Of a stretch of 32,000 nt of DNA, positions 10,627 to 28,758 are shown in pieces. The position numbers and the translations under genes were made by a program. Within the stretch, counting starts at the first letter, position 1; each line of letters starts with the position of its first letter. Under the pieces are notes generated by a model. It was not told the origin of the DNA. It did no database searches and saw nothing but the letters and a program-made list of their open reading frames with translations. The stretch is from assembly GCF_000146505.1 (NCBI RefSeq), contig NC_017448.1, positions 2,760,001-2,792,000 on the forward strand. Direction: 5' to 3'. The stretch comes from Fibrobacter succinogenes subsp. succinogenes S85 (GTDB lineage Bacteria > Fibrobacterota > Fibrobacteria > Fibrobacterales > Fibrobacteraceae).

Positions 10627-11244
10627 TTAGTTGAAGGTAAGGGAAGCTACGAGGGCGAACGAGTTGGAAGTTGCTTCGTTCTTTTCGCCGCGGTAGTTTC
10701 CGTCAGCAGAATGGTGCGTGTAAGAGAATGCGACACCAAGTCCGAGTTCATCATTCATCCACCATTCCTTACCGACGGAAATGTTGAAACCGAAACCGGC
10801 ATCAAGGTTGTCAAAGCTGTAATCGCTGTTGTTGAGGGTGATGCTGATGTCGGTTACACCGAAGGAGGCGCTGACATAGACGTTTTCCTGGATGGGGAGG
10901 TAGTAGGTGATGCCTGCACCGAGCATGAGCATGTTGAAACCGTCGTGTTCGAGAGTTTCATCAACATAGGCGCTCTTGAGCTTGAGGTCAGAATAAATGA
11001 CGTCGCCAGAGAACATGGCGTGCAAGATGAGGTTCTGAGTTATAGCACCGCCCAACTTGAAGGAAGCTTCGAATGCACCGCCGTCGCAAGTCATCTTACC
11101 GAGACCGCCTGCGATTTTGTCTTCAAAGCTGGAATAGCCTGCACCCATCGTGGCGTTCAAGAAGAAACCGTCATGGGTCTTCGGGGCAGAAACTGCAAAT
11201 GCGCTGATGGCAGCGAGTGCAATGGACAAAAGAATTTTTTTCAT
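10627..11244 (-). CDS. Small (~205 aa) outer-membrane beta-barrel protein, paralog 2
   Basis: Start chosen at MKKILLSIALAAISAFA (ATG at 11244, AGGAAA RBS) instead of the ORF-track start at 11319. Has a signal peptide and the same architecture and C-terminus (LTFN) as paralog 1. Confidence 0.7.
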   Translation of the reverse strand: MKKILLSIALAAISAFAVSAPKTHDGFFLNATMGAGYSSFEDKIAGGLGKMTCDGGAFEASFKLGGAITQNLILHAMFSGDVIYSDLKLKSAYVDETLEHDGFNMLMLGAGITYYLPIQENVYVSASFGVTDISITLNNSDYSFDNLDAGFGFNISVGKEWWMNDELGLGVAFSYTHHSADGNYRGEKNEATSNSFALVASLTFN

Positions 11245-11284
11245 ATAATGTTTTCCTGATAAGTTTTTGTTTGTCGCAAAGTTA

Positions 11285-11312
11285 ATAATAAACTTACATG
11301 AATTCATGTAAA
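11285..11312 (-). promoter_or_regulatory. Candidate promoter of the small-OMP operon, overlapped by an 18-bp perfect palindrome
   Basis: In the minus-strand sense: TTTACA (11312-11307), 16-nt spacer, TATTAT (11290-11285). The palindrome TTACATGAATTCATGTAA (11294-11311) covers the spacer and the -35 box. Confidence 0.35.
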
Positions 11313-11474
11313 AATACATTTACATGTATCAAGATGATACGAATATGTTCTGCAATCATTTCAACAGGGCTATAGACTAGCTGGCTACGATTAATTACTA
11401 TCTTTATCCCCGTTATGATTATCCATTCCTTTAAAATGGGCTTCCAGTGATTAGCGGTTTTGACTTGTATTTCC

Positions 11475-11511
11475 CTAACCACTAACCACCAACCACTAAC
11501 CACTTAATTAA
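11475..11511. repeat. Heptamer array CTAACCA CTAACCA CCAACCA CTAACCA CTTAATT immediately upstream of tyrS
   Basis: Read directly from the sequence. The 7-nt period places TAA (plus strand) and TAG (minus strand) in successive reading frames. The array ends 5 nt before the tyrS ATG. Confidence 0.85.
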
Positions 11512-11515
11512 AATC

Positions 11516-12733
11516 ATGCAATTCCGTCCTGTTAAAGAACAGCTTGAAATTTTGATGCGCGGCGTGACCGACATCGTGCCGCAAGATGAACTCGAAAAGA
11601 AACTCCAGAAGTCCTACGAAACGGGCAAGCCCCTCCGTATCAAGATGGGTGTGGACCCGACGGCTCCGGACGTTCACTTCGGTCATACGGTCGTGATGCG
11701 CAAGCTCCGCCAGTTCCAGGACCTCGGTCATACGGTCGTCCTCATCGTGGGTGACTACACTGCGCAGATTGGTGACCCGAGTGGCCGCAACAAGGCTCGT
11801 CCGCGTCTCACGCACGAACAGGTGCTCGAGAATGCAAAGGAATACCAGGAACAGTTCTTCAAGGTAGTCCGTCGCGACCAGGTGGAAATCCACTACAACG
11901 GCGAATGGTTCTCCAAGCTCCCATTCAGCAAGGTCACGGAACTCATGGGCCAATTCACGGTTGCCCAGATGCTCGAACGCGAAGACTTCCACAACCGCTA
12001 TACCGCCAATACGCCGATTAGCCTCCACGAATTCATGTACCCGATGATGCAGGGCTACGATTCTGTCGCTATCCAGAGTGACGTGGAACTCGGCGGCACC
12101 GACCAGAAGTTTAACGTGCTCCGTGGTCGCGACCTCCAGATTTTTGAAGGCATGGAACCGCAGATTGGTCTCTTCATGCCGATTTTGCTCGGTACTGACG
12201 GCAAGGTCAAGATGTCCAAGTCCATCGGCAACTACGTTGGCCTTAACGAACCGGCTGACGTGATGTACCACAAGATTTATAGCCTCTCCGACAACATTGT
12301 CGAAAACTGGTACGAACTTTTGACCAACATTCCGCTCGACGAAGTCAAGCAGATGATGGCAGACATTGCTGCCGGCAAGATGAACCCGAATGATGCTAAG
12401 CACCGCCTCGCTATCGACATCGTGACGCAGTACTACGGTGCCGAAGCTGCCGAAGCCGCTGCCGCCAAGGAACGCGAAATCCACAGTGGTAACGCTATCC
12501 CGAGTGATGCTCTCGAATGCTCCGTCGATGCTGGCTCTTACGGCGCTCTTGACTTGCTCGTGAACATCAAGGCTTTTGCCAGTAAGGGCGAAGCCCGCCG
12601 CATGGTGCAGAACGGTGGCGTAAAGATTGGTGGCGAAAAGCTCGCCGATCCGCAGGCCCAGATCGAAATCAAGGGCGGCGACCAACTCGTCGTCCAGGTG
12701 GGCAAGCGTAAGTTCTTCAAGGTGAACTTCTAA
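11516..12733 (+). CDS. tyrS: Tyrosine--tRNA ligase (short bacterial type with C-terminal S4-like domain)
   Basis: HIGH-type motif DVHFGH; KMSKS motif present verbatim (KMSKSIGN). DPTAPD...VVLIVGDYTAQIGDPSGR matches the Thermus-type TyrRS pattern. C-terminal S4-like segment: EARRMVQNGGVKIGGEKL. Confidence 0.93.
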   Translation: MQFRPVKEQLEILMRGVTDIVPQDELEKKLQKSYETGKPLRIKMGVDPTAPDVHFGHTVVMRKLRQFQDLGHTVVLIVGDYTAQIGDPSGRNKARPRLTHEQVLENAKEYQEQFFKVVRRDQVEIHYNGEWFSKLPFSKVTELMGQFTVAQMLEREDFHNRYTANTPISLHEFMYPMMQGYDSVAIQSDVELGGTDQKFNVLRGRDLQIFEGMEPQIGLFMPILLGTDGKVKMSKSIGNYVGLNEPADVMYHKIYSLSDNIVENWYELLTNIPLDEVKQMMADIAAGKMNPNDAKHRLAIDIVTQYYGAEAAEAAAAKEREIHSGNAIPSDALECSVDAGSYGALDLLVNIKAFASKGEARRMVQNGGVKIGGEKLADPQAQIEIKGGDQLVVQVGKRKFFKVNF

Positions 12734-15482: not shown

Positions 15483-15683
15483 ATGAGTTTAGTAAACGAT
15501 CTCGAACTAGAAATTGAAAATTTCAAACGCGAATACGAGAAATTCGAACGCGGCAACAAATCGGCTGGCACGCGCGCTCGCAAGGTCTTGCAGAACATCA
15601 AGAAGACCTGCCAAGAGATCCGCGTTTCAATTCAAGGTGCAAAGAAGGAGGAGGAGAAGGACGATCTTCCGAGCGAGGATTGA
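15483..15683 (+). CDS. Small histone-H1/Hc1-like DNA-binding protein (66 aa)
   Basis: GGAG RBS 7 nt upstream of the ATG at 15483. ERGNKSAGTRARKVLQNIKKTCQEIRVSIQ resembles the N-terminal domain of chlamydial Hc1 (GNKAAAQRVR...) and the ~60-aa histone-H1-like proteins of Bacteroidetes. Acidic tail. Confidence 0.65.
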   Translation: MSLVNDLELEIENFKREYEKFERGNKSAGTRARKVLQNIKKTCQEIRVSIQGAKKEEEKDDLPSED

Positions 15684-15756: not shown

Positions 15757-15785
15757 TTGACTAAAGTCATTTTTGAAGGTATATT
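15757..15785 (+). promoter_or_regulatory. Near-consensus sigma70-type promoter of the envelope cluster
   Basis: TTGACT (15757-15762), exactly 17-nt spacer, TATATT (15780-15785), ~84 nt upstream of the ATG at 15869. Confidence 0.5.
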
Positions 15786-15868
15786 CCACCATGGGTTTTG
15801 TGTTTGCCAAACTGGCAAACGTATGTTCAACGAATTTAAGTGTTCTATGATTGGAGAAACGTAGCAGT

Positions 15869-17386
15869 ATGACCCTAAAGAAACTGGTCTTAATTACGGC
15901 CGGGGCGATGCTTCTTTCAGGAACCGCCATGGCAAAGAATATCAACGTGCCTGGCGATTTCGCAAAGATTGCAGATGCTCTCGGAAATGCGGATGCCGGG
16001 GATACAATCCTTGTCAAACGCGGTGTTTATAACGAAAACATCACCTTGATCATGGGTGTTGTTCTCAAGGGCGAGGACCCATTGTCTACCATCATTGATG
16101 GTGGTCGCCGTGGTCCGACCGTCATGGGTACTTCGGGCGCTGAAATGTCGCACTTCACTGTGAGGAACGGTCTTGAAGGTATCCTTTGCGAAAACGCTGC
16201 CCCCTACATTCATCATTGCTATGTGATCGATAACCATGCAACGGGTATCGGTGCCTTTATTTCTCTGCCGTGGCTCCGCAACAACGTGGTGTACGGCAAC
16301 CGCTGGTCCGGTATTCTCGCCTGGGGTGCTAAGTCTCTCGATGCCTACATCGAACAGAACGTCGTGCTCCGCAACGGCTATTCCGGCCTTACCTTGAAGG
16401 GTCCGACCAACTTGGTCGCCCGTAACAACATCTTCATGGAAAACCACTACTACGGTGTGTTTGCTGACCCGGCTGCCGGCCAGACGAAGGTGGAATACAA
16501 CAACATCTACAAGAACTACTACCCGTTCAACCAGTTCATCAAGGTGAACCGCACGAACGTGTCCTTGGACCCGAAGTTCAACAACCCGTCTCTCGGCAAC
16601 CCGAACTTCTTCTGCCAGTCCACCTCTCCGATGATCAAGCGCGGTAAGGGCAAGCTGGATATCGGTCTTACTGCAACTGACGTCGTTAAGGAAGAAGAAG
16701 CTGTCGAAGAAACTCGTAATCCGGATACCGATGGCGATGGCCTTTGCGATCCGTGGGTTTCTGAAGAAGGTCTCTCCGAAAAGTACGCTGGCGTTTGCAC
16801 CGGTTTCGATAACTGCCCGGAAGAAGCTGAAGACTTCGACGGCTATCAGGACGACGATGGTTGCCCGGATGCCGACAACGACCGCGACGGTCTCTGCGAC
16901 CCGTGGGTTGAAGCCAAGGGTATGCTTTCTCAGTACGCTCACATCTGTAAGGGTGTGGACCTCTGCCCGGAACAGGCTGAATCTCTGAACAACTACAAGG
17001 ACGACGATGGTTGCCCGGATGAAGTTCCGCAGCCGCCGAAGAAGGTCTTTGTTCTTGAAGGCGTGAACTTCGAATCTGGTAAGTCCACGATTACTCAGGA
17101 CTCCTACATCTCCTTGATGAAGGTTGTCGATATCATGGAAACCTTCCCAGAAGCTACATTTGAAATCGTTGGTCATACTGATAACATCGGTAACAAGGAT
17201 AAGAACATGACCCTCTCCGCAGACCGTGCAAACGCTGTGAAGAACTTCCTTGTCGAAAAGGGCATTGCCGAAAGCCGTATGACTACTCAGGGCATGGGCG
17301 ATACTAAGCCTGTTGCTTCCAACAAGACACCTGAAGGACGTGCGCAGAACCGTCGTATCGAGTTCATCCGCACGGATATTAAGTAA
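15869..17386 (+). CDS. Secreted right-handed beta-helix (PbH1/NosD-like) - thrombospondin type-3 repeat - OmpA_C peptidoglycan-binding protein
   Basis: Start at MTLKKLVLI (GGAGA RBS). Signal peptide ends in AMA|KN, with no lipobox. Repeated xNxVxxNxxxGI beta-helix turns (VRNGLEGI, VIDNHATGI, VYGNRWSGI, VLRNGYSGL, IFMENHYYGV). Two ~47-aa Asp/Cys-rich TSP3-like modules (DGDGLCDPWV...DDDGCPD twice). OmpA_C domain: FEIVGHTDNIGNKDKNMTLSADRANAVKNFL...RAQNRRIEF. Confidence 0.85.
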   Translation: MTLKKLVLITAGAMLLSGTAMAKNINVPGDFAKIADALGNADAGDTILVKRGVYNENITLIMGVVLKGEDPLSTIIDGGRRGPTVMGTSGAEMSHFTVRNGLEGILCENAAPYIHHCYVIDNHATGIGAFISLPWLRNNVVYGNRWSGILAWGAKSLDAYIEQNVVLRNGYSGLTLKGPTNLVARNNIFMENHYYGVFADPAAGQTKVEYNNIYKNYYPFNQFIKVNRTNVSLDPKFNNPSLGNPNFFCQSTSPMIKRGKGKLDIGLTATDVVKEEEAVEETRNPDTDGDGLCDPWVSEEGLSEKYAGVCTGFDNCPEEAEDFDGYQDDDGCPDADNDRDGLCDPWVEAKGMLSQYAHICKGVDLCPEQAESLNNYKDDDGCPDEVPQPPKKVFVLEGVNFESGKSTITQDSYISLMKVVDIMETFPEATFEIVGHTDNIGNKDKNMTLSADRANAVKNFLVEKGIAESRMTTQGMGDTKPVASNKTPEGRAQNRRIEFIRTDIK

Positions 17387-17397
17387 AGGAGTAGGTG

Positions 17398-19638
17398 ATG
17401 TTGCGTACTAGTTTCATCAAGACGTCCGCTCTCGGACTTGCCGTAGCCAGCACTTCTTTGTTTGCAGAGGCAACCTACACGCCGAATAAGTATCAGCAGA
17501 ATGACTGGTTTGCAGAATTTGGTGGTAACACCTCGATGTATGTGAACCCGGCTGGTATTTCTGAAACAGATCAGCTCGAATTCAGCGCTGCTTTCTTTAG
17601 CACCATCAGTGGCGAAGCTAGCCAGGAATACGTCAGCTTGACGTACCCGATTGACTACAAGCACACTTTGGGCTTCTCCCTTTTTGAAAACGGTGCTTCT
17701 ATCGAAGGTGGCGAATCCTATAGCGAAATTGCCGCAATGTTCGGCTATTCCTACAGACTTTTCCACTTGCTCTCCCTCGGTGTCAGTGTCGACGTGCTTT
17801 ACATCAACCAGTTTGATGAACTCAAGCAGCTCACTGTCGGTGCCGACGTGGGCTTGAGCTGGAACCCGCTTGCTTCTTCGAAGTACGGTTACTTGCTCAT
17901 TGGCGCTAGCCTCCAGAACATCCTTGCTCCGGCTGTCAGCGAAGCTGATGGCGACGGTAGCTTCAAGTTCGTGTTCATGGGCGCTGCCGATGCTTACAAG
18001 ATCCCGACAAACCTGAACTTGTCCTTGTTCTATCGCGGATTCAACCGTCTCCTTGAAATGAAGGCTGAATTCTCTTTCATCGATATCATTCATGATTCCG
18101 ATGAAGGTGGTAAGGGTGCTAACCTCGAAATGAGCTTCACCTTGACCTACTACCTTTCTTCTCACCTTGGTGTTCGCGCTCGCTTCACTAAGGAAGGCTA
18201 CCCGGTTATCGGTGCTACGGTTAACGTCAAGGATGTCAGCATCTTCCGTTACCTCGCTCTTGACCTTGAAATGTCTCACGACGACCTTTGGGCCAAGAAG
18301 AACCGTGGCTTTGTCTGGGCTGTCAAGCTCACGACCCGCTTCGGTGACACTCGTGAAGAAAAGATCGGTGAAGAACGTTATCGCCGCTTGAAGATCGAAC
18401 CTGAAAACGACTACCGCGCTGCAATGCGTCTGTACTTGAACCGTCAGTTCCTCGAAGCTGCTTATGCCTTCGGTAAGGTTCAGACCAAGTACCCGGCATT
18501 CCACCTCGTTGACCAGGCTGCTTTCTACAAGGCAAAGTCTTTCGAAAACCTCCGTATGCACAAGGCTGCTAAGTCTGTCTACGAAGACGCTATCAAGCGC
18601 TATCCGCAGAGCGACCAGCGCGCTAAGTATCACTTCCAGTTGATGAACATCGACTATAAGGAAGGCAAGTACACGGAAGCTATGACCAAGTATCAGAACA
18701 TTGCCCAGAAGTTTGGTGAAAGCGACGTGAAGGCTGACGCTGACTACGTTGCCGGCCAGATCAAGTTCGAACAGGGCCTCTATCAGGAATCTGTCGACCT
18801 GCTCGCCTCCATCCTCCCGGGTAACGCCAACTACTTCTACGCTCGCTATACCATGGGTATCGCCAACAGCCGTATGGGTAAGTTTGACGAAGCTGAAAAC
18901 TGCTTCCGCGACATTACGGAACAGCCGGTTTCCAACCAGTCTGAACGCGACCTCCAGGACGCTGCAAGAGTTAAGCTCGGCCACCTCTTCTTCTCTGGTG
19001 AAAAGCCGGACATCGCAGCTGCCGCTCAGATGTATGGCCAGGTCCAGAAGGAATCTCCGGTATTTGACGAAGCTATGCTCGGTATTGCATGGTCCTTCCT
19101 CAAGGTCAACAAGCCAGACGAAGCTATCAAGCCGGCCAAGTGGATCATTTCCAACCTTCCGGAATCCTTCCTCGTGTCCGAAGCTTACCTCGTGATTGGT
19201 TACTGCCACTTCATGAAGAAGAACTATCAGGATGCTCTTGAAGCTTTGACTCAGGCTGAAAAGCGCACGGAACAGCCGATTGTGTCTGTCGCATCTCGCG
19301 ATAGCGCTCGCCAGGCTTACGATGCAATGCAGAGCCAGTTCGACTCCGTTCAGGTTCTTGCCTTGGATCTTGCTCGCCAGTTGCCGACTCCTCGTGTGGA
19401 AAGCAAGCGCGAAGCTTTGCGTCCGACGTTCAACAAGGCTAACCAGGCTATTGAAGATTACGCTTCGTTCATGCAGAGATCTATCCAGAGTGACCGCTTC
19501 GAATCCAACCGTAAGCGCATTTTGGATGACGCAGGCTTTACCAAGGCTACCCTCTTGTCTAAGATGGGCGGTGCAGGCGGTGGAACCTCCAAGAACTCTG
19601 GTGCATCTGAAATGCCCTCGTTGGAGGACGACCTCTAA
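17398..19638 (+). CDS. Fusion protein: N-terminal OM beta-barrel-like domain (~300 aa) + C-terminal YbgF/BamD-like TPR domain
   Basis: AAAGGAG RBS; ATG at 17398 (a GTG at 17395 is also possible). Signal peptide ends in SLFAEA. Strand-like segments carry an NPAG motif near the N-terminus (NTSMYVNPAGI). From ~aa 330 there are repeated TPR-like helices (YRAAMRLYLNRQFLEAAYAFGKV, KSVYEDAIKRYPQS, YTEAMTKYQNIAQKF...). Confidence 0.75.
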   Translation: MLRTSFIKTSALGLAVASTSLFAEATYTPNKYQQNDWFAEFGGNTSMYVNPAGISETDQLEFSAAFFSTISGEASQEYVSLTYPIDYKHTLGFSLFENGASIEGGESYSEIAAMFGYSYRLFHLLSLGVSVDVLYINQFDELKQLTVGADVGLSWNPLASSKYGYLLIGASLQNILAPAVSEADGDGSFKFVFMGAADAYKIPTNLNLSLFYRGFNRLLEMKAEFSFIDIIHDSDEGGKGANLEMSFTLTYYLSSHLGVRARFTKEGYPVIGATVNVKDVSIFRYLALDLEMSHDDLWAKKNRGFVWAVKLTTRFGDTREEKIGEERYRRLKIEPENDYRAAMRLYLNRQFLEAAYAFGKVQTKYPAFHLVDQAAFYKAKSFENLRMHKAAKSVYEDAIKRYPQSDQRAKYHFQLMNIDYKEGKYTEAMTKYQNIAQKFGESDVKADADYVAGQIKFEQGLYQESVDLLASILPGNANYFYARYTMGIANSRMGKFDEAENCFRDITEQPVSNQSERDLQDAARVKLGHLFFSGEKPDIAAAAQMYGQVQKESPVFDEAMLGIAWSFLKVNKPDEAIKPAKWIISNLPESFLVSEAYLVIGYCHFMKKNYQDALEALTQAEKRTEQPIVSVASRDSARQAYDAMQSQFDSVQVLALDLARQLPTPRVESKREALRPTFNKANQAIEDYASFMQRSIQSDRFESNRKRILDDAGFTKATLLSKMGGAGGGTSKNSGASEMPSLEDDL

Positions 19639-19650
19639 TAGCTATAGTTG

Positions 19651-19689
19651 CGGGCCCGCTTAAAACCGGGTCCGTCCTTTTTATTTTTT
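19651..19689 (+). terminator. Hairpin plus T-tract between the two TPR genes (attenuator/partial terminator)
   Basis: An 8-bp stem (CGGGCCCG / CGGGTCCG, one G-U pair) with an 8-nt loop, followed by GTCCTTTTTATTTTTT. Confidence 0.35.
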
Positions 19690-19717
19690 AGAAATAATCA
19701 TAGGTGGATAGAGAACG

Positions 19718-22700
19718 ATGAAAAATCTATTGCTCGTTTCAGCAATTGTTTGCTCCATGGCCGGAACATCTTTTGCTGCATCGGATCCGTGTAAAGATAA
19801 GACTACCGAAGCAAAGAATCTTTACGCAAAGTGCAAATCCATTGGAAAGGGCAACGCTGGTTATGAACAGTGCGCCAGTTCCTATAGAGTTATTAAGAAC
19901 CAGGCCGAACAGGCTTGCCGTTCTGGTGGCCTTGATGAACAGGGCATGCGCGATGCTATCGCCCAGTGGGAACGTCAGGTTGAACGCTGCAAGGGCAAGG
20001 TAAGCAACCGTTGCGCTAGCTCCTTGCAACAGTTGGGTCACTATCAGTTCCAGCTCGAAGAAAAGCAGTTCCTCGACAAGAACGCCCAGTATGAAGAAGA
20101 TGTCGCATGGTGCGCTGACCGCGATAACAAGCCGGCAAAGTGCGCCAACATTGGTCAGTTCCCGAAGCCTGACCATCAGAAGTCCTTGGGCTATTTCCTC
20201 GAATACATCGACAAGTATCCGAAGGAAGCTAAGGCTCCGACCGTGATTTACCAGGCCGCTGCCGTGCAGGAAGCCAGTGGCGAAGACGACAAGGCATACA
20301 AGCTCCGTATGCAGCTCGTTCGCGACTTCCCGGACAACGGTCTCGTGCCGAAGGCATGGCTCCGTATTGCAGAATACCACTTCATGAACCGTAAGTTCAA
20401 GGACGCTATCGGTGCCTATAAGAAGGTGACCGGCTTCGAAAACCTCACGGGTAAGGAAGCTGCACTTGCCATGTACCACTTGGCAGAATCTTACTACAAC
20501 ACTGCCGAATACGAAATCGCTGCTAAGCAGTATTTCGATTACATCGTCGGTGCCGACAAGGGTAAATACCCGAACGACTTGCGCGCAGAAGCTATGGACT
20601 TCATGGCTGCTTCCTTCTCTGACTTGGAAGGTGGTGGTGTCCAGGAAGCTGAAGCTTTCTTGAGGGACAAGAAGGTTCCGTTCAAGGACTCCGTCTACTA
20701 CCGCATCGGTATGAAGAACAAGGACCATGACCGTAACGAAGAAGCTGTCCAGTCCTTCAAGCGCTTGATGAACATCAACCCGGACTACATCGACGCTCCG
20801 CTCGCCGATATCGCCATGATCGAAATCTTGATCGTGCAGCAGAAGTTCGAAGATGCTCAGGCTCACCGCTACGAAGTTGTGAAGCGCTATGACCGCAACT
20901 CTTCTTGGTACAAGAAGAACCAGAAGTATCCGGAATCTGTGAAGAATGCTGAAAAGGCCATCCGTGGCGCTATGCTTGACATTCCGCAGTACCACCACGC
21001 TCAGGCTGCTAAGCTCACCAAGGAAGGTGATATCGAAGGCGGTAAGAGACAGTATTCTAAGGCTATTGAAGCTTACGAAGCATTCCTCAAGCGTTATGCC
21101 AAGGAACCGACTTGGGACGAATACAAGGTTCACATCAACCTTGCTCTCGTCTACCAGGAAATGGGTCAGCATGCTAACGCTGCCAAGATGTTCAACTGGA
21201 TCGTTGAAACCGATACGACCCGCTACGGCCGTCGCGAAATGGGTTCTGGCAACCTCCTCACGAAGGATGAAGCTGGTTATAACGCCGTTCTCATGATGGA
21301 CCAGGCTCGCGAAAATGCAAGAAAGACCAAGGCTAACGATGATGCCGTCCAGGCATACAACTTGCCCGAAACCAAGGCCTACTTCGACCAGGTCGACAAG
21401 TACATGGCAAAGTTCGGCAAGAACAAGGAAGCTGCAGAACTTGCATACAACGCCGCTATCGTTCATTACGATGCCAAGCAGTTCAGTGTTGCCGTGAACG
21501 TCCTCCGCAAGCTCAAGAAGGACTTCCCGAAACACCAGTACATTTTGCTCATCAGCCGTATGCTTGCTCAGTCCTTGCTTGAATCCAACCAGCTCGACGA
21601 ATCCCTCACGGAATTTGAATGGCTCCTCAAGCAGTACAAGGCCAAGGAAACTCGCAACGACTCCATGGCTGCTGAAATTGAAAAGGCTATCGCTTACGTT
21701 CTCTTCCAGAAGGCTGAATCCTCTGTCAAGGCTGGCAAGAACGAAGCCGGTGCCAAGGCTTACTTGGACCTCGTGAAGCGCTACCCGAACATCGACATTG
21801 CTGACAAGGCAATCTTCGAAGCCGCTGCCGCTTACGAAGCCACCAACCAGTATAAGAAGGCTGCAGAAACCTTCATGCTCCTCCCGAAGAGCTATGCTAA
21901 GTCTCCGCTCACGGTTAAGGGTATCTTGCGTGCTGCAAGCAACTACAAGAAGGACAAGCAGCCGGTTCAGGCCGCCAAGACGTTCTTGTTCATTACCGAC
22001 AACTTCCCGCAGGATTCTATGGCCTTCTCGGCAATTGGCTTTGCCGCTCAGACCTATGACTCCATCCCGGACAAGAAGCAGGCCGCTATTACCTTCGAAC
22101 TTGCTTACAAGCGCTACCCGCAGAACGAAGAAACTCCGTCCTTCCTCTATAGCGCATGCTTGAGCTATGACGAAGCCAAGATGACCAACGAAGCTATCCG
22201 CTGCTCCAAGGATCTCGTCCGCGACTATCCGAAGAGCTCTTACGCTGTTGACGCTGCCTTCTCTATCCCGATGGCATACGCTAACGCTAAGAAGTGGGAC
22301 CTCGCCATCCAGGAATATCGCAACTTCATCAAGATGTACCAGGAAGACAAGGAAAAGCTCATCGCTGCTTACATCGGTATCGCTCGTGCCTACCGCAACG
22401 TGAAGGACATGGAAAGCTCTGTTGACGCCTATAAGAAGACTCTCGAAGCTTACGACAAGTACGGCTTGCAGATCAAGAACGCAGACGCTGCTATCCCGGC
22501 TGAAGCTGCATTCTATATGGGTGAATACGAATACAACAAGATGGTTCCGGTTGTCTTGAAGGGTAAGGAAAAGGAAAAGGCCAAGATCATCAAGAGCTTG
22601 GTTGAAATCCTCCAGAAGGCTATGGGTCACTACTCCAAGTCTGCTGCTTACGCATCTGAAAAGTGGACCTTCCGCGCCACCAACAAGATGGGTATGCTCT

Positions 22701-23596
22701 TCGTGGCTATGGCTGCAAAGATTCGTGAACAGCAGCTCAACGGTAAGAAGGAAGAAGAAAAGTTTGCAGAACGCATCGGCATTGTGCAGCAGCTCCCGTC
22801 TTACTATGAACAGGCTCGTCCGATCTTCCAGAAGAACATCGACCTCGCTCGTGACCAGGGCTTCTACAACAAGGACGTGATCGCTGCAGAAATGGGCTAC
22901 ATCGAAATGTACTACCAGGGCTGCGCTGTGTTCGTCGAAGTTGCTGACGCATTCGCTAACTCCCCGCTTCCGGATAGTGCTTTGATCGTGCGTGAATACA
23001 TCGGCCAGGGCATGGTGAAGGATGACGCTATCATGGCTGCCCACGAAGACTTGGAAGCCTACCGCGAAGAATTGAACAGCCGTTCTGATGCCGCTAAGCA
23101 GCTCGCTATTCCGCAGTGCGCAACCGGTATCAAGGCTTCTGCTCACTACGGTATCGATAACGAATGGACGACCAAGCTTTACGAAACCTTGAGAAAGCTT
23201 GATGAAGCTAACGAAGACCTCAACGTGAAGATCGAAAAGTTTGACCCGTCTACGCTGTTCGCTGACCCGACGTACTTCAAGTTGAAGGCTCGTATCGAAC
23301 AGATCGAACAGTCTGACGCTATGACTCTTGAAGAAAAGGTCTCTACATTCCGCAACATCGTCAAGGAAACTAAGGACGATCGTACCAAGCTTGAAGAAGA
23401 ACTCGCCAAGCTCAAGGAATGGACCGCTAACCCGAGCCTGATCCCGGCTTCTGAAAGAGGTGTCGAAGCTGCTTCTGAATCTTCTAGCGATGAAGAAGTT
23501 GTCGAACAGACCTCCAAGAAGGGAAAGAAGGGCAAAAAGGCTAAGTCTGAAGCCAAGAAAGCCAAGAAAAAGGCTAAAAAAGGCAAGAAGAAATAG
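19718..23596 (+). CDS. Very large (1292 aa) secreted TPR-repeat protein with Cys-rich N-terminal region, C-terminal coiled coil and polylysine tail
   Basis: AGGTGGA RBS. Signal peptide ends in TSFA|AS. There are 8 Cys in aa ~25-150. Many TPR-like helix pairs run throughout (AIGAYKKV, AAKQYFDYI, AVQSFKRLMNINPDY, AIEAYEAFLKRY...). The C-terminus is KKGKKGKKAKSEAKKAKKKAKKGKKK. Confidence 0.8.
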   Translation: MKNLLLVSAIVCSMAGTSFAASDPCKDKTTEAKNLYAKCKSIGKGNAGYEQCASSYRVIKNQAEQACRSGGLDEQGMRDAIAQWERQVERCKGKVSNRCASSLQQLGHYQFQLEEKQFLDKNAQYEEDVAWCADRDNKPAKCANIGQFPKPDHQKSLGYFLEYIDKYPKEAKAPTVIYQAAAVQEASGEDDKAYKLRMQLVRDFPDNGLVPKAWLRIAEYHFMNRKFKDAIGAYKKVTGFENLTGKEAALAMYHLAESYYNTAEYEIAAKQYFDYIVGADKGKYPNDLRAEAMDFMAASFSDLEGGGVQEAEAFLRDKKVPFKDSVYYRIGMKNKDHDRNEEAVQSFKRLMNINPDYIDAPLADIAMIEILIVQQKFEDAQAHRYEVVKRYDRNSSWYKKNQKYPESVKNAEKAIRGAMLDIPQYHHAQAAKLTKEGDIEGGKRQYSKAIEAYEAFLKRYAKEPTWDEYKVHINLALVYQEMGQHANAAKMFNWIVETDTTRYGRREMGSGNLLTKDEAGYNAVLMMDQARENARKTKANDDAVQAYNLPETKAYFDQVDKYMAKFGKNKEAAELAYNAAIVHYDAKQFSVAVNVLRKLKKDFPKHQYILLISRMLAQSLLESNQLDESLTEFEWLLKQYKAKETRNDSMAAEIEKAIAYVLFQKAESSVKAGKNEAGAKAYLDLVKRYPNIDIADKAIFEAAAAYEATNQYKKAAETFMLLPKSYAKSPLTVKGILRAASNYKKDKQPVQAAKTFLFITDNFPQDSMAFSAIGFAAQTYDSIPDKKQAAITFELAYKRYPQNEETPSFLYSACLSYDEAKMTNEAIRCSKDLVRDYPKSSYAVDAAFSIPMAYANAKKWDLAIQEYRNFIKMYQEDKEKLIAAYIGIARAYRNVKDMESSVDAYKKTLEAYDKYGLQIKNADAAIPAEAAFYMGEYEYNKMVPVVLKGKEKEKAKIIKSLVEILQKAMGHYSKSAAYASEKWTFRATNKMGMLFVAMAAKIREQQLNGKKEEEKFAERIGIVQQLPSYYEQARPIFQKNIDLARDQGFYNKDVIAAEMGYIEMYYQGCAVFVEVADAFANSPLPDSALIVREYIGQGMVKDDAIMAAHEDLEAYREELNSRSDAAKQLAIPQCATGIKASAHYGIDNEWTTKLYETLRKLDEANEDLNVKIEKFDPSTLFADPTYFKLKARIEQIEQSDAMTLEEKVSTFRNIVKETKDDRTKLEEELAKLKEWTANPSLIPASERGVEAASESSSDEEVVEQTSKKGKKGKKAKSEAKKAKKKAKKGKKK

Positions 23597-23614
23597 CGGT
23601 AAAAACTATTTTAC

Positions 23615-23650
23615 GGGGAATCCTAGTTCATGGGATTCCCCTATTTTATT
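23615..23650 (+). terminator. Rho-independent terminator after the 1292-aa TPR gene
   Basis: A 9-bp stem (GGGGAATCC / GGATTCCCC) with a 9-nt loop and tail TATTTTATT. Confidence 0.6.
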
Positions 23651-23784
23651 GGGCTTGAGGGCGATTGCCTAGCGGTAAAGAAAGTTTTACTACTAAAATC
23701 TCCCACAACGCTCCAAAAAAAAATAAATATGAACGAAGATTATCAAAAACAACAAAAACAATAACTCAATTAAAGGAGTCTCTA

Positions 23785-24423
23785 ATGTCTAAATTGCTTC
23801 AATCCTTCAGCCCTGAATCTGATGGTTACCAGTTCATGTGGATCATCTTGGTCGTGTTCATCATCGGCCTCGGTTTCTCCCTCGAACGTATGACCTACAT
23901 TATGATTAAGAGCTCCAAGGGCCGCGGTAAGTTCATGGCCGATTTCGGTAAGCTCGTCATGCAGAACCAGCTCGAACAGGCTCTCCAGTTTGCTAAGAGC
24001 TCCAAGCTCCCGATTGCTAAGGTTATGGACGCCATCGTTGGTGCCAAGCTCAATTGCAAGGATGCTGACAAGGCTCGCGACATGATGACTGCTGCTTCTG
24101 ACGCAGTGTTCCTCACTGAAGCTCCGCGTCTCACTCGTTACATCTCCATCATCTCCGTTATGGCTTCCATCTCCACGTTGCTCGGACTTATGGGTACGAT
24201 TTACGGTCTGATCTACACATTCGACGCTGTTGCTAACAAGCCGGCTTCTGAACGCGCTAAGGCTCTTGCTGACGGTATTGCTATCGCTATGGGTACGACG
24301 CTCCTCGGACTTCTCTCTGCAGTTCCGCTCCTCGTTATCGTTGGTCTTCTCAACATGAACTCCGAACGCCTCATCCAGGAAATGGAAGAAAAGGGCCTCA
24401 AGATTATCAACTCCCTCGCATAA
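23785..24423 (+). CDS. exbB: MotA/TolQ/ExbB-family proton channel
   Basis: Start at MSKLLQS (AAAGGAG RBS 6 nt upstream) instead of the ORF-track start at 23665. Three TM segments and the MotA_ExbB core (ISTLLGLMGTIYGLIYTF...GIAIAMGTTLLGLLSAVPLLV). Confidence 0.9.
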   Translation: MSKLLQSFSPESDGYQFMWIILVVFIIGLGFSLERMTYIMIKSSKGRGKFMADFGKLVMQNQLEQALQFAKSSKLPIAKVMDAIVGAKLNCKDADKARDMMTAASDAVFLTEAPRLTRYISIISVMASISTLLGLMGTIYGLIYTFDAVANKPASERAKALADGIAIAMGTTLLGLLSAVPLLVIVGLLNMNSERLIQEMEEKGLKIINSLA

Positions 24424-24463
24424 TCAATCAGAGAGTTTAATTTTAACTGGAGTTTAAATAAAC

Positions 24464-25354
24464 ATGGCAAAAAATATCAAGAAACCAGGAAAGGTCGAAG
24501 AACCGGATTTGCTTCCGGCGATGGGCTTGTTCACCATCTTGATTCCTATGCTTTTGACCATGACTGCTTTCTCCAAACTCGCCATTGTCGAAGTGAACCT
24601 GCCTGAACGCAGCCAGATGATCATGGACAATGACGTGCCGCCTCCACCTGATGAGCAGGCATTGAACTTGTCACTCGCTATCGCTAACAACTACCTTGTT
24701 ATCGGTGCACGCGGTGGTTTCCAACCGAACGTCTATTTCAAGGAAATGTGGACGTTCCGTTGCAAGTCTGATGCTCAGCTCGTTACGTATCCGATGGAAG
24801 ACGTGAAGGCTGCTGTTGAAAGTGGACATGGACCGAAGTGCAAAGATGGTTCCGAAATGGACAAAGAGAAGTATCTCTACGAAATCGAAACCATCGAACT
24901 CTGGGCTATTCAGAAGGAATCTGAAGAAGACCCGGGTAAGGTCATCTGGGCCGCATATAAGAACGACGGTAGCTCTGAAGAAGCTCATGCCGACAGTGCT
25001 TATGTAGACGGCGCCAACAACTTCTTGTCCCTTCCGGGTGAAGGCGCAATGGGTATGCAGAAGCCGGCCGCTCTCAAGGCTCCGACTCCGGGCATGGCTG
25101 TTGCAACGCTTCAGCCGAACTCTGCCCGCACTCTCAAGCCGGGTGACAAGACAATGGTTTATCCGCTCTCCGCATACGATCTCATCGCTAAGGACTTGAT
25201 CGCAATCCATACTCAGTTCATCGACTTGGACGACGTTGATAACATCATCATCGTTGCAAACGACGACACTCAGTTCGACAAGATCATCCAGCTCATGGAC
25301 CGTGCTAAGGAAGCTGGTTTCAGCAAGATCAACCTTGCAAAGTTGGGAGGTTAA
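24464..25354 (+). CDS. Atypically long ExbD/TolR-family protein (296 aa) with a ~150-aa periplasmic insertion
   Basis: N-terminal TM (LLPAMGLFTILIPMLLTMTAF) followed by VEVNLPE. The ExbD-like C-terminus is NIIIVANDDTQFDKIIQLMDRAKEAGFSKINLA. The central insertion (~24716-25169) resembles nothing I recognise. Confidence 0.7.
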   Translation: MAKNIKKPGKVEEPDLLPAMGLFTILIPMLLTMTAFSKLAIVEVNLPERSQMIMDNDVPPPPDEQALNLSLAIANNYLVIGARGGFQPNVYFKEMWTFRCKSDAQLVTYPMEDVKAAVESGHGPKCKDGSEMDKEKYLYEIETIELWAIQKESEEDPGKVIWAAYKNDGSSEEAHADSAYVDGANNFLSLPGEGAMGMQKPAALKAPTPGMAVATLQPNSARTLKPGDKTMVYPLSAYDLIAKDLIAIHTQFIDLDDVDNIIIVANDDTQFDKIIQLMDRAKEAGFSKINLAKLGG

Positions 25355-25356
25355 TC

Positions 25357-25851
25357 ATGGCTAGAAAATCTCGTAAGTATAGCGAAGACGTACCTTTCTC
25401 CTTAACGTCCATGATGGACATGATGACCATCATCTTGGTGTTCATGATCAAGAACATGGACGCTGAAGGTCAGCTCTTGACCCAGGCAGAAAACTTGATT
25501 CTTCCGATCTCGACCTCCAAGGTCCAGCCGAAGGAAGTGTCTTTGACTGTCGTGGTCGATGCTAACTACGTTATCGTTGACAATGAAAAGGTCGTGCCGA
25601 CCGCTGACGTTCTCGCTCAGGAAGACCTCCTCGTTACGAAGGTGGACGAAATCCTGAAGGACCGTCGCGCTATCGAACAGGAACACGCTCTCAAGATGGG
25701 CCTTCCTGCAGACGAAGCTGGTCACATCATTGTCCAGATTGACAAGAACATCCCGTATGATGCGATGTATAAGGTCATGGCCACTTGCGGCTTCTCCGGA
25801 TACACGAATATCGCATTCGCCGTGATGGAAAAGAACGGCGGGGAGGAATAA
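25357..25851 (+). CDS. exbD: ExbD/TolR-family protein (canonical size, TM Asp present)
   Basis: The ATG lies 2 nt after the upstream stop, and a GGAGG sits inside the upstream gene end. The TM segment LTSMMDMMTIILVFMI carries the conserved Asp. C-terminus: IIVQIDKNIPYDAMYKVMATCGFSGYTNIAF. Confidence 0.85.
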   Translation: MARKSRKYSEDVPFSLTSMMDMMTIILVFMIKNMDAEGQLLTQAENLILPISTSKVQPKEVSLTVVVDANYVIVDNEKVVPTADVLAQEDLLVTKVDEILKDRRAIEQEHALKMGLPADEAGHIIVQIDKNIPYDAMYKVMATCGFSGYTNIAFAVMEKNGGEE

Positions 25852-25854
25852 TCA

Positions 25855-26781
25855 ATGGCAAAGAAGAACATAGATCCGTTTATTGCGTCGCTCATGCCGG
25901 AATCCGACAAGAAGATGGGCGCAATCGCCGGTGTCTCTCTTGTGATCGCTTTGGCTATGTGTATTTGGGCTTCCATGTACGAACAGGTCGTTGCTGAAGT
26001 CGTCTTCGACAACGCTGATTCCGTGGACCTTACTACTTCCATGCAGATTGAGCAGAAGGAAGAAAAGAAGGAAGAAAAGAAGAAGCCCGAACCGAAGAAG
26101 CCTCGTAAGAAAGCTGGTGGCGGTGGTAAGCCGCGCGGTAAGGGACAGCCGAACGCTCCGCAGACTCGCGGCGTGCTCAAGCTCCTCACTGCTCAGACCA
26201 AGAATGCCTCTGCTGCTGCTTATGACTTGATGAAGAACCAGAAGTTCACCAAGGACATTGATAAGGTGCTCAAGGACGTCGCTGGTCTCCAGACTACGGG
26301 TAAGACCGTTCTCGGTGGCCGTCGCGGTAAGGCTAATGGTGGCTTCAATGAAGGTTACGCAGAAGGTGGTTCCGGTGGTATCGGTGACGGCCTTGCAGGT
26401 CTCCTTGGCGGTGGTGGCGGTGGTATCGCTACTAAGGCTAAGGGTTCCATCAAGACTCCGTCCATGCGTGATATCGACATGGGTGCCGGTGGTGGTTCTC
26501 GTTCCGCTGCAGACATCATGAAGGTTGTCCGCCAGCGTACTCCGGGTCTTCGCCACATCTATAACAAGTGCCTGAAGAAGAAACCGGGATTCCAGGGTAA
26601 GGTTACCTTGAAGTTCACGATCGCTCCGGGTGGCGAAATCATCAGCATCTCTACTGTTTCTTCGACGACTGGTTTCAGCGAATTCGATACCGAAGTCAAG
26701 AATGCAGTTAGCCGCTGGACCTTCAGCAAGGTGAAGTCCGGTAACACGACGGTTACGATTCCGTTCACGTTCTCCGAATAA
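25855..26781 (+). CDS. TonB-like energy-transducer protein with K/E/P-rich and Gly-rich linkers and an AgmX/PglI-like TonB_C domain
   Basis: The ATG lies 3 nt after the exbD stop (GGAGG RBS). One N-terminal TM (AIAGVSLVIALAMCIWASMY). Linkers: KEEKKEEKKKPEPKKPRKK and GGGGGGIATK. C-terminus: IMKVVRQRTPGLRHIYNKCLKKKPGFQGKVTLKFTIAPGGEIISI...VSRWTFSK...VTIPFTFS. Confidence 0.75.
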   Translation: MAKKNIDPFIASLMPESDKKMGAIAGVSLVIALAMCIWASMYEQVVAEVVFDNADSVDLTTSMQIEQKEEKKEEKKKPEPKKPRKKAGGGGKPRGKGQPNAPQTRGVLKLLTAQTKNASAAAYDLMKNQKFTKDIDKVLKDVAGLQTTGKTVLGGRRGKANGGFNEGYAEGGSGGIGDGLAGLLGGGGGGIATKAKGSIKTPSMRDIDMGAGGGSRSAADIMKVVRQRTPGLRHIYNKCLKKKPGFQGKVTLKFTIAPGGEIISISTVSSTTGFSEFDTEVKNAVSRWTFSKVKSGNTTVTIPFTFSE

Positions 26782-26798
26782 TTCACTTCGAAAGCTTG

Positions 26799-26833
26799 AA
26801 AAAAAGACCAGACGAAAGTCTGGCCTTTTTTTT
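26799..26833 (+). terminator. Rho-independent terminator after the TonB-like gene
   Basis: A-run, stem AGACCAGAC / GTCTGGCCT (one mismatch) with loop GAAA, then T8 (26826-26833). Confidence 0.75.
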
Positions 26834-26942
26834 GTCTGGGGGAAAAAAGTCCCAAAAAAATTCGCATATTTATTAAAATATTGTTGCGTTTTTTCTTTTA
26901 TAAAACTAACTTTATAAAAGAATTTTCAATAGGAGTTATTCC

Positions 26943-28247
26943 ATGAACTTAAAAACCGTAGCTGCAGTAGGCACCGCATTTGGTATTCTTGGTGTAGGTT
27001 CTGCATTTGCAACATTTGCCCGTATTGAATCTATGGGTAAGAATACGACTTACATCATGGATGATGTGAGCATCTTCGATAACCCGGCAAATATCAACCT
27101 CTATTCCAACTACTTGATCGGTGAATTCGGCCCATATACGGACCGTGTTGAAGTGGGCGCAAACCGCGATCCTCAGCACCCGAACTTCGGTGGTATCTTC
27201 TCCATTGCTATTGGCGGTGACAACAATCCGGACCCGCGTATTTCTATCGGTGGTCTCTTTGGCCGCATCAATACTGAACTTTTCCAGTACCTTCCGGATG
27301 TCGTGATTGGCGACAATGGTTCTAAGACGAATGTTCCGGAAACGGTGACGAACTTCGACGGTTTCTTGGGTGGTACGCTCACGAACGGCAACGCATGGGG
27401 CTTGCATGTGTACATTGCTGCACAAGACGGCGGTGACAAGGGCGAAGACGGCAATTACCAGGTAAAGAGCGATGCTTTTGCATCTGTCGTTCAGGCCGAT
27501 GGTGGTATGAACTTCCAGTTCACGAACTACTTTGACTTGGAATTCTCTCTTGCCTTGGCCCGTATCCAGTACGGTCCGGAACACCACAGCTTCTTTGATG
27601 ACGGCAACTTCTCCTGGTTGGTCAAGTCCCGCGCATTCTTTACCTTGGATGCCATTAACGGCGAACTCGTTCCGGCTTTGAACCTCAAGTTCATTGATGC
27701 TCCGGGCCTGGATGAAAAGCATGCTCAGGTGGGTATCGGTATCAACGTTGCACTTGACCGTGGCTTCTTCTGGATGGGCGCCGACTTCATCTGGAACAAG
27801 AGAAAGGCTCATGACTGGATCTTTGATGCAATTTCTAAGACTTGGACCTATGACTCCCGTAACGAAGACAATAGACACTGGGATGAACGTACCGATGTCG
27901 GTGGCATGATCAGCTTCGGTATCGAACGTAACATCTGGTGGGATTGGTTCGTTATCCGCGTTGGTGGCCAGAAGTCCATTCTTTATACAAAGTGCGATGT
28001 GAACAACAAGAACGTCGACAAGTATAACGACAAGCAGTATGGCATTTGCAAGGATGATGGCAACTTCTTCAGCACGAACCCGCTCGCTGACGGCACCTCC
28101 AAGGACCATGTCGGTTTCGGTTTCGGTATCAACATTGAAGAAAAGCTGAAGATCGACGTGACTGTTGCTGAAGACCTCCTCTTCCGTAACCCGTTCCAGG
28201 GCGAAGGCAGACTCTTCTCCAGAATCTCTGCAACGTACTCGTTCTAA
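26943..28247 (+). CDS. 434-aa outer-membrane beta-barrel protein (FadL/PorV-like N-terminal DDxSxFxNPA motif)
   Basis: TAGGAG RBS. Signal peptide ends in GSAFA|TF. N-terminal motif MDDVSIFDNPANINLY. Amphipathic strands throughout, with a C-terminal ATYSF (terminal Phe typical of OMPs). Confidence 0.7.
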   Translation: MNLKTVAAVGTAFGILGVGSAFATFARIESMGKNTTYIMDDVSIFDNPANINLYSNYLIGEFGPYTDRVEVGANRDPQHPNFGGIFSIAIGGDNNPDPRISIGGLFGRINTELFQYLPDVVIGDNGSKTNVPETVTNFDGFLGGTLTNGNAWGLHVYIAAQDGGDKGEDGNYQVKSDAFASVVQADGGMNFQFTNYFDLEFSLALARIQYGPEHHSFFDDGNFSWLVKSRAFFTLDAINGELVPALNLKFIDAPGLDEKHAQVGIGINVALDRGFFWMGADFIWNKRKAHDWIFDAISKTWTYDSRNEDNRHWDERTDVGGMISFGIERNIWWDWFVIRVGGQKSILYTKCDVNNKNVDKYNDKQYGICKDDGNFFSTNPLADGTSKDHVGFGFGINIEEKLKIDVTVAEDLLFRNPFQGEGRLFSRISATYSF

Positions 28248-28354: not shown

Positions 28355-28390
28355 AAACTCCCATCAGGGAGCTTTTCTTTTTTTATTTTA
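28355..28390 (+). terminator. Hairpin plus long T-tract terminator downstream of the OMP gene
   Basis: AAAACTCCC-ATCA-GGGAGCTTTT followed by CTTTTTTTTATTTT. Confidence 0.5.
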
Positions 28391-28395
28391 TGGAC

Positions 28396-28758
28396 ATGAA
28401 GAAAATTTTGTCCCTCATATTCCTTGTATTGCTTTCGTCTTGTTCTGAACCGACGGAACGCATTGAAAAGAAACTCCTCACGTACCTGCAGGAAGACCTG
28501 AAGTTCATGGTTGCAGAGACCTTGAATGCGAATGCAACGAAGGCTGACTTGCTTGATGAACCGTATTACAAGATTCGTGATTTTAGGTTGTTCGAAGGGG
28601 CGGAGGCGGAAATCTACGCTGCCTATGCCGAGGTCGATTTTTATATTTATCGCGACCTTGCGATGTTTGAAAAACGCAAGTACCGCTACGAGGTCCATGG
28701 CCGGCACTGGGACCGCTATTCCAAGGTTCTGAAATTCGGTAAGGATAAAAATCCTTAG
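28396..28758 (+). CDS. Small hypothetical lipoprotein (120 aa)
   Basis: MKKILSLIFLVLLSSC has a lipobox. The start at 28396 is preferred over 28390. No SD and no family recognised. Confidence 0.55.
   Translation: MKKILSLIFLVLLSSCSEPTERIEKKLLTYLQEDLKFMVAETLNANATKADLLDEPYYKIRDFRLFEGAEAEIYAAYAEVDFYIYRDLAMFEKRKYRYEVHGRHWDRYSKVLKFGKDKNP

Follow-up and report, generated by a model that had tools for sequence, protein, structure and literature searches.

A probable Agl-Glt-type core complex encoded by a conserved envelope gene cluster of Fibrobacter succinogenes S85

What is the role of the widespread stand-alone Agl-Glt core in bacteria that do not glide, and how does the rumen cellulose degrader Fibrobacter succinogenes break down crystalline cellulose without cellulosomes or known motility? 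These two questions meet at one locus of strain S85, an eight-gene cluster at positions 15757-28247 of the 32,000-nucleotide (32 kb) stretch analysed here (the window), whose products have been seen repeatedly among envelope, cellulose-associated and vesicle proteins. We consider it likely that the locus encodes the Fibrobacter Agl-Glt "core complex", a transducer driven by the proton motive force (pmf) and loaded by a periplasmic and outer-membrane scaffold instead of a plug-domain receptor.

Gene content and relationship of the cluster

The window agreed with positions 2,320,669-2,342,909 of CP001792.1 with 2 mismatches in 22,241 bases, and the second gene product was 100% identical to a tetratricopeptide repeat (TPR) protein of S85. 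Because the sequence matches this strain, the locus genes are Fisuc_1891-1898 (FSU_2396, 2397, 2398, 2400, 2401, 2402, 2403 and 2404). An open reading frame (ORF) listing combined with Pfam and NCBIfam profile searches showed eight co-oriented plus-strand envelope ORFs filling 15757-28247, with all of the ORFs that the initial annotation had described:

15869-17386, plus strand: g1 (Fisuc_1891/FSU_2396), signal peptide, NosD/Beta_helix, TSP3-like Asp repeats, OmpA_C
17398-19638, plus strand: g2 (Fisuc_1892/FSU_2397), GltC-like TPR protein with signal peptide
19718-23596, plus strand: g3 (Fisuc_1893/FSU_2398), GltD-like periplasmic TPR scaffold of 1292 aa
23785-24423, plus strand: g4 (Fisuc_1894/FSU_2400), AglR-like MotA/TolQ/ExbB channel subunit, 212 aa
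24464-25354, plus strand: g5 (Fisuc_1895/FSU_2401), long ExbD/TolR-like subunit in the AglQ position, 296 aa
25357-25851, plus strand: g6 (Fisuc_1896/FSU_2402), AglS-like ExbD/TolR subunit of standard length
25855-26781, plus strand: g7 (Fisuc_1897/FSU_2403), GltG-like single-pass TonB-like transducer with TonB_C
26943-28247, plus strand: g8 (Fisuc_1898/FSU_2404), PopA-superfamily porin-like outer-membrane protein without a Pfam family

That annotation had noted the lack of a TonB-dependent transporter and of a TolB-like propeller in the cluster; neither a Plug/TonB_dep_Rec protein nor a TolB-like propeller was detected by profile search anywhere in the window.

The product of g7 comprises about 20 cytoplasmic residues, a transmembrane helix, a Lys/Glu/Pro spacer, a conserved segment (residues 113-165), a Gly-rich linker and an AgmX/PglI-type C-terminal domain. 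Its C-terminus scored 79.2 bits (cut-off 40) with NCBIfam NF033768, the model of the AgmX/PglI C-terminal domain, a better match than that of the general TonB C-terminal model, and a GltG model scored 55 bits. An AlphaFold (AF2) model from 42 sequences comprised the transmembrane helix, long disordered linkers and a C-terminal domain (195-308) with a pLDDT (predicted local distance difference test) score of ~90. The best Foldseek match of this domain was the TonB C-terminal domain of H. pylori (6sly), which has also been published as the best match of the GltJ C-terminal domain. No cytoplasmic FHA domain was found in g7 by profile search or in the model.

The motor subunits stood far from the Tol and Ton families. 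g4 matched PF01618 (MotA_ExbB) at 79 bits, but reached only 53.5 bits with the NCBIfam equivalog model for TolQ (cut-off 221) and 36.8 with that for ExbB (cut-off 206); it was also about equally distant from the solved structures of TolQ (34 bits) and ExbB (30 bits) in the PDB. PF02472 matched g6 at 52.4 bits and g5 at 35.9 bits, in the latter covering the C-terminal part only (the last ~50 residues), and the equivalog scores reached in the motor set were 22 against 127 for TolR and 22 against 216 for ExbD. The profile searches proposed in the initial annotation thus placed g7 with AgmX/PglI and g4-g6 far below the TolQ, TolR, ExbB and ExbD cut-offs, and left g8 without a Pfam family. g5 and g6, which lie in tandem after the channel gene, share 19% identity, and g5 has a ~130-aa periplasmic insert. 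When aligned with E. coli TolR and ExbD, g5 displays Gly21 at the site of the proton-binding Asp (TolR D23, ExbD D25), and this position was Gly in 70/70 orthologues, while the transmembrane Asp21 of g6 was Asp in 73/73. Since g5 carries Gly and g6 Asp, the stator axle would consist of two unlike subunits, only one of which offers a protonatable residue. Separately, the periplasmic part of g5 (24644-25351), insert included, recurs in soluble signal-peptide proteins: residues 220-418 of P0125 are a copy of it (35% identity, E 3e-38) lying between a Fib_succ_major domain and a g7-like module, and residues 76-209 of P0128 also match.

On the scaffold side, g2 and g3 fit GltC (~550-750 aa) and GltD (~950-1300 aa), as described, in size, TPR content, signal peptides and position. 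g2 consists of a signal peptide, a beta-rich N-terminal domain (~60-315), TPR (319-625) and long C-terminal helices. Its first 315 residues were predicted as ~16 beta strands (AF2 model, mean pLDDT 57), and its Foldseek matches were PorV of the type IX translocon (6h3i_F, TMt 0.52), FadL/TodX barrels and TPR proteins; there was also a weak NCBIfam PorV2 match. Provisionally, the modelled N-terminal domain is probably a FadL/PorV-like outer-membrane barrel fused to a GltC-like protein and, if this holds, the GltC-like connector would itself be an outer-membrane protein. Permissive Pfam/NCBIfam searches gave no family for the g2 N-terminus, the g5 insert or g8. g3 has a Cys-rich N-terminal region, TPR families, repeated YbgF-like units and a poly-Lys C-terminal tail. 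Its TIGR02795 score of 119.7 bits (cut-off 90.1) is summed over 8 repeated stretches in 1292 aa, and we read it as repeats in common with CpoB/YbgF and not as orthology. The tail itself (23480-23596; ~30 residues, KKGKKGKKAKSEAKKAKKKAKKGKKK) resembles a basic C-terminal module reported on many F. succinogenes glycoside hydrolases.

The g1 protein matched OmpA of Pfam at 89.6 bits as well as Beta_helix and NosD (CASH-type), with the TSP3-like Asp repeats lying between the beta-helix and OmpA_C. Its signal is of the signal-peptidase-I type, it has neither a lipobox nor a barrel, and it scored 65 bits with the Pal model (cut-off 125). No other protein of the cluster is as well conserved, its identity being 69-76% in loci where g4 shows 50-59%.

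In agreement with these matches, the order of g2-g7 is that of gltC-gltD-(gltE-X)-aglR-aglQ-aglS-gltG, as the locus tags of seven proteobacterial genomes show (Methylibium, Cellvibrio, Hahella, Marinobacter, Saccharophagus, Shewanella and Teredinibacter). Luciano et al. defined a "core complex" of gltC, gltD, gltE, gltG, aglR, aglQ and aglS, and found its genes grouped in one cluster, with no known function, in F. succinogenes, Geobacter, one Betaproteobacterium and several Gammaproteobacteria (Luciano et al., 2011; PMC3169522). Table S3 of that paper gives Fisuc_1892 as GltC (MXAN_2541), Fisuc_1893 as GltD (MXAN_4870), Fisuc_1894 as AglR, Fisuc_1896 as AglS (MXAN_6860) and Fisuc_1897 as GltG, with g5 (Fisuc_1895) unlisted; their trees put these genes with Agl/Glt and not with Tol or Ton, and a two-hybrid assay showed an interaction of AglR with GltG. 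We assign the locus to the Agl-Glt type because of the NF033768 match, the failed Tol and Ton cut-offs, the gene order of the proteobacterial core and this published assignment for S85.

The initial annotation had leaned toward a reduced Agl-Glt core over a Ton or Tol-Pal system, which the same evidence supports, and its statement that such a core had been noted outside the Myxococcales was correct and refers to this very locus. The cluster was presented there as an unnoticed, uncharacterised candidate, which the earlier publication contradicts. A near one-to-one match to the Agl-Glt/Nfs parts list was an overstatement, as the cluster has no GltE, F, I, J, K, A, B or H, g7 is without an FHA domain and g1 has no Glt counterpart. 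Of the barrels taken for GltA/B-like counterparts, the one at the g2 N-terminus instead appears, from a weak model, to resemble FadL/PorV, and g8 is PopA-like; AgmX, named as the GltG counterpart, is GltJ, while PglI is GltG.

The cluster is thus already known in S85, both as an Agl-Glt core complex and as a set of eight genes expressed together. In the open literature that we searched, the core-complex papers and the Fibrobacter proteome papers do not cite each other's reading; we found no Fibrobacter paper treating the cluster as an Agl-Glt-type motor, and none on the Fibrobacter cellulose apparatus that mentions AglR or GltG. New here are the g1-g7 unit, the conserved promoter and hairpins, the Gly of g5, the putative g2 barrel and the recurring g7 module, the first two and the last of which are described below.

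Transcription units, conservation and the recurring g7 module

Gene starts and junctions were largely as first annotated. Two starts were revised: g1 most likely begins at ATG 15869, behind a GGAGA ribosome-binding site, and g4 at ATG 23785, behind AAGGAG, both in agreement with the S85 annotation. The junctions proved exact, with an 11-nucleotide (nt) gap between g1 and g2, a 2-nt gap between g5 and g6 (GGGAGGTTAATCATG, GGAGG within the g5 end) and a 3-nt gap between g6 and g7 (GGGGAGGAATAATCAATG, GGAGG within the g6 end). The signals flanking the genes were:

15757-15785, plus strand: promoter-like site TTGACT-17-TATATT upstream of g1, from a promoter scan
19650-19675, plus strand: hairpin and T-run between g2 and g3
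23615-23641, plus strand: terminator-like hairpin with an 11 bp stem, and T-run, after g3
26808-26823, plus strand: terminator-like hairpin and T8 after g7
28358-28371, plus strand: hairpin and T-run after g8

The g1 promoter was present as annotated. Promoter-like sites were no commoner in the region than in shuffled sequence; this one was kept as TTGACTAA...GGTATATTCC (-35 and extended -10) in at least 12 divergent Fibrobacter loci with differing flanks and, because it persists despite diverged flanks, we take it to be more than chance. The extended -10 also recurs in another promoter-like site (TTGACA-17-GGTATATT) at 6360-6388, just 3' of a SpoIIE-type phosphatase gene (end 6320) and ~370 nt upstream of a YqeY-like gene; the common GGTATATT may be a local promoter consensus. 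Between an mqnA-like gene and the g1 promoter is a gene for a 66-aa Hc1 histone-like protein (15483-15683).

Three hairpins, at 19651, 23615 and 26799, had been proposed to subdivide expression. Two of them stood: a strong hairpin and T-run after g3 was retained, with differing sequences, in 9/10 divergent loci, and the one after g7, which lies at 26808 and not at 26799, in 11/11 of the divergent loci examined. Since the sequences are unrelated yet the structures are kept, selection appears to act on structure at both places. The hairpin between g2 and g3 is confined to S85 and a few close relatives and is not conserved in most divergent loci; it is probably an attenuator or RNA stabiliser, and the 42 nt between it and the g3 start are too few to hold a promoter. 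The hairpin after g8 was found in most related loci. From these signals, the likely transcription units are g1-g2-g3, g4-g5-g6-g7 and g8. Rfam and tRNA scans gave no match inside the cluster.

The neighbourhood comparison proposed at the outset bore out the synteny: the order g1-g8, followed by a small lipoprotein gene and mreBCD, was invariant in ~70 Fibrobacteraceae genome loci, including F. intestinalis. In a divergent metagenomic lineage (g4 identity 50-59%), g1-g7 were still together, and unrelated genes, cheR and hisG among them, took the place of g8 and mreBCD. It follows that deep conservation extends to g1-g7 as a unit. Judging from sequence, g8 is a separate transcription unit that adjoins g7 only in the Fibrobacter lineage; its N-terminus matched the NCBIfam PopA model at 40 bits, below the cut-off of 150, and FSU_2404 has been named as a PopA-superfamily member and modelled as a hexamer (2025 paper, PMC12228718). 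The cluster does lie upstream of mreB, mreC, mreD and the start of mrdA, as annotated; the grouping of all eight genes as one unit does not hold to the same depth. We rejected a functional link to mreBCD, the adjacency being lost in the lineage that retains g1-g7. The small gene between g8 and mreB (28390-28758) encodes a 122-aa predicted lipoprotein (lipobox LSSC) without a family match, kept in all Fibrobacter loci at 51-98% identity. On the other side of the cluster, ~5 kb upstream and on the opposite strand, are two adjacent paralogous genes for small OMP_b-brl barrels (9916-10539 and 10627-11319, both minus strand; 207 and 230 aa).

Scanning genomes with g7 returned Fibrobacteraceae loci only. 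A metagenome scan returned divergent Fibrobacterota loci and many orphan paralogues, with no proteobacterial core, and plasmid scans gave no g7 match and g4 matches in TonB2-type clusters only. The orphans are membrane-anchored g7 paralogues without adjacent motor or TPR genes (L072 6884-7807, L079 9950-10924, L085 10001-10963 and many metagenome loci), ~60-64% identical in Fibrobacter and ~30% in environmental Fibrobacterota. Two candidates for syntenic orthologues in other Fibrobacterota, P0231 and P0307 (30% identity to g7), were rejected because their contigs show orphans without motor genes.

A search of g7 against 1.84 billion representative proteins gave 137 matches at E <= 1e-30, many of which are not orthologues but secreted proteins or lipoproteins ending in a g7-like module. 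This module (26200-26781 in the window) comprises the last 130-190 residues, that is, the Gly-rich linker and the AgmX/PglI-type domain, and copies are 60-85% identical. The N-terminal parts of its carriers (P0125, P0128, P0130, P0143, P0150, P0169, P0215, P0242, P0233 and P0136) are unrelated, consisting of Fib_succ_major repeats, VIT+VWA, GLUG, MORN or no known domain. Those of the carriers that bear names are from Fibrobacter and on long contigs, and one carrier lies among arrayed Fib_succ_major paralogues. Two Fibrobacter species have an additional ORF between g7 and g8 (L077 11143-11835; L082 ~11396-11800), which encodes a 230-aa chimera in which the signal peptide and first ~55 residues of g8 are followed by the g7 C-terminal module. 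The sharing of this module suggests a common docking partner or tag and, by analogy, the partner of the tagged proteins may be g3, in which case the scaffold would act as a hub.

Proposed mechanism, output and alternative readings

In the structural model of the Myxococcus machine, AglR5 surrounds AglQ-AglS, the GltG linker wraps GltD, the GltG C-terminal domain sits on the GltD N-terminal domain, and GltD is joined to GltC. Starting from the domains, gene order, conservation, expression and envelope or vesicle location of the Fibrobacter proteins, we infer every contact that follows, and the output, by analogy with this model and with the ExbB/TolQ pentamers. A g4 pentamer would form the channel around a g5-g6 heterodimer in which only g6 offers a protonatable Asp, and proton flow would shift the membrane-spanning helix of g7, the TonB-like protein. 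Its Lys/Glu/Pro spacer and its Gly-rich linker would traverse the peptidoglycan, and its conserved segment (113-165) and C-terminal domain would grip g3. g3 would in turn be coupled to g2, anchored in the outer membrane via its own putative barrel, and the beta-helix/OmpA_C protein g1 would bind peptidoglycan, tying the assembly to the wall.

The output of such a machine would be mechanical work on outer-membrane or surface assemblies, as distinct from receptor-mediated import and from a complete gliding apparatus. In Fibrobacter, this could mean positioning, moving or releasing the TPR/OmpA/fibro-slime/cellulase complexes seen on cellulose-grown envelopes and in vesicles. The proteins of g1-g7 have all been found in the cell envelope (Raut et al., 2015, 2019), where FSU_2396, 2397 and 2398 were read as scaffolds of a cellulolytic multi-protein complex; FSU_2396 and FSU_2397 were also found in an outer-membrane vesicle complex with cellulases and a fibro-slime protein (Raut et al.). 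Yeoman et al. (2021) described all eight genes as one cluster, highly expressed in vivo, and proposed a role in vesicle formation. We tentatively put surface-complex dynamics or transport foremost; outer-membrane homeostasis or vesicle formation comes only slightly behind, some other output is unlikely, and import is unlikelier again. As a long shot, the core complex might be the energy coupler of the cellulose-degrading surface apparatus, passing force via g7, g3 and g2 to adhesin/cellulase assemblies, with g3 as the docking hub for g7-tagged envelope proteins (Fib_succ_major, VIT-VWA and others). If so, these assemblies would be moved along the surface or would pull cellulose chains, much as Agl-Nfs moves glycan strands. 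Reading the locus as one conserved pmf-driven machine also leads to precise experiments; none follow if it is taken for a presumed TonB importer with passive scaffolds.

Several points weigh against assigning the locus to the Agl-Glt core. GltE and the extra core gene are missing and Luciano et al. did not identify g5 as AglQ; the orthology of g2, g3, g4 and g6 is taken from that published analysis, with support from gene order and domain architecture; the low confidence of the g2 model leaves the fused barrel provisional; and the cellulose induction of the cluster proteins is small. That induction, 1.2-1.7-fold greater abundance of FSU_2400-2403 on cellulose, led Raut et al. (2019) to read these proteins as a TonB system for cellodextrin import. 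The TonB_C fold of g7 fits this proposal, as do the two barrel-type proteins of the cluster, the putative g2 barrel being like the FadL/PorV transport barrels. However, the authors found no MalA-like receptor and the window encodes no Plug/TonB_dep_Rec protein, the g7 C-terminal domain is of the AgmX/PglI type, the motor proteins score far below the ExbB and ExbD cut-offs, and Fibrobacter owns a separate, ordinary ExbB-ExbB-ExbD-TonB-TPR cluster. The homologous machines of Myxococcus, moreover, move surface complexes and do not import solutes, and we regard a TonB-type importer as improbable.

A divergent Tol-Pal-like system, attaching the outer membrane to the wall in growth and division and governing vesicle release, would come near the suggestion of Yeoman et al. 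(2021). It would account for tolQ being the top NCBIfam match of g4, for the YbgF-like TPR units of g2 and g3, for OmpA_C in g1, for the mreBCD-mrdA genes adjoining the cluster in all Fibrobacter loci, and for the presence of g1 and g2 in vesicles. Yet the window holds no TolB, g1 is not a lipoprotein and falls short of the Pal cut-off, the TolQ and TolR scores given above fall far short of theirs, and the S85 annotation includes a separate peptidoglycan-associated lipoprotein, FSU_0604, beside a TPR lipoprotein, FSU_0603. The published trees, too, group the genes with Agl/Glt, and the divergent lineage that retains g1-g7 no longer has mreBCD next to them; we judge this explanation slightly less probable than the importer. 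Homology to the Agl-Glt motor and transducer core might also suggest a working gliding engine that moves Fibrobacter along cellulose. This is very improbable: the Group A genes (gltA, B, F, H, I, J and K), known from Myxococcales and Bdellovibrionales only, are all absent, the core alone has been argued to be unable to drive motility (PMC3169522), g7 has no cytoplasmic FHA region, and motility has never been shown in F. succinogenes.

Comparison with known systems

We compared the cluster, read as an Agl-Glt core, with five known systems. With the Ton/TonB2 systems (TtpC-ExbB-ExbD-TonB-TPR) of Vibrio and Pseudoalteromonas it shares the ExbB/ExbD families, the TonB_C fold and a TPR partner, but the identity to g4 is only ~30%, and the Pseudoalteromonas cluster examined adjoins a TonB-dependent receptor whereas none is encoded in the 32 kb of the window. 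A second Fibrobacter cluster (L079 45-3778) is of this ordinary type, ExbB(large)-ExbB-ExbD-TonB-TPR, and probably corresponds to FSU_0431-0435 of S85; FSU_0431 and FSU_0435 were reported to be lower on cellulose (Raut et al.).

Tol-Pal resembles the cluster in its 5:2-type pmf stator, TolA/TonB-like transducer, YbgF-like TPR units and OmpA_C wall anchor. It differs in having TolB and in its anchor, which in Fibrobacter is a secreted beta-helix protein and not a lipoprotein; the cluster proteins also miss the TolQ, TolR and Pal equivalog cut-offs, and a separate Pal is annotated in S85. The PopA superfamily (Bdellovibrio PopA), porin-like proteins that form radial oligomers and trap lipid, is relevant through g8, a named member whose N-terminus matches PopA below cut-off, although no link between PopA proteins and Agl- or Ton-type motors is known.

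Compared with the Agl-Glt/Agl-Nfs machines of Myxococcus xanthus, the cluster lacks GltA/B/H/K, GltF, GltI, GltJ, CglB, AglZ and MglA (profile searches found none of the Group A components GltA/B/H/K, GltF, GltI and GltJ in the window), g7 lacks the cytoplasmic FHA domain of GltG, and the cluster has no known motility or sporulation output. Myxococcus GltC binds the separate barrels GltA and GltB, whereas g2 seems to bear its own. What the two have in common is one TolQ-like with two TolR-like subunits, an AgmX/PglI-type TonB-like transducer and TPR connectors of the GltD/GltC type.

The Agl-Glt core of the proteobacterial genomes differs from that of Fibrobacter in carrying GltE and an "extra" gene between gltD and aglR; the ORF listing of the window shows none between g3 and g4, and GltE is not listed for Fibrobacter in the published table. 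In Fibrobacter, the subunit that takes the place of AglQ has 296 aa, a large insert and no transmembrane Asp, a conserved upstream beta-helix/OmpA_C gene (g1) without a Glt counterpart is present, and the GltC-like protein appears, from its model, to bear its own barrel. Both nevertheless encode a TPR protein (GltC), a giant TPR protein (GltD), a channel, a pair of TolR-like subunits and, at 308-334 aa, a short TonB protein of the GltG kind.

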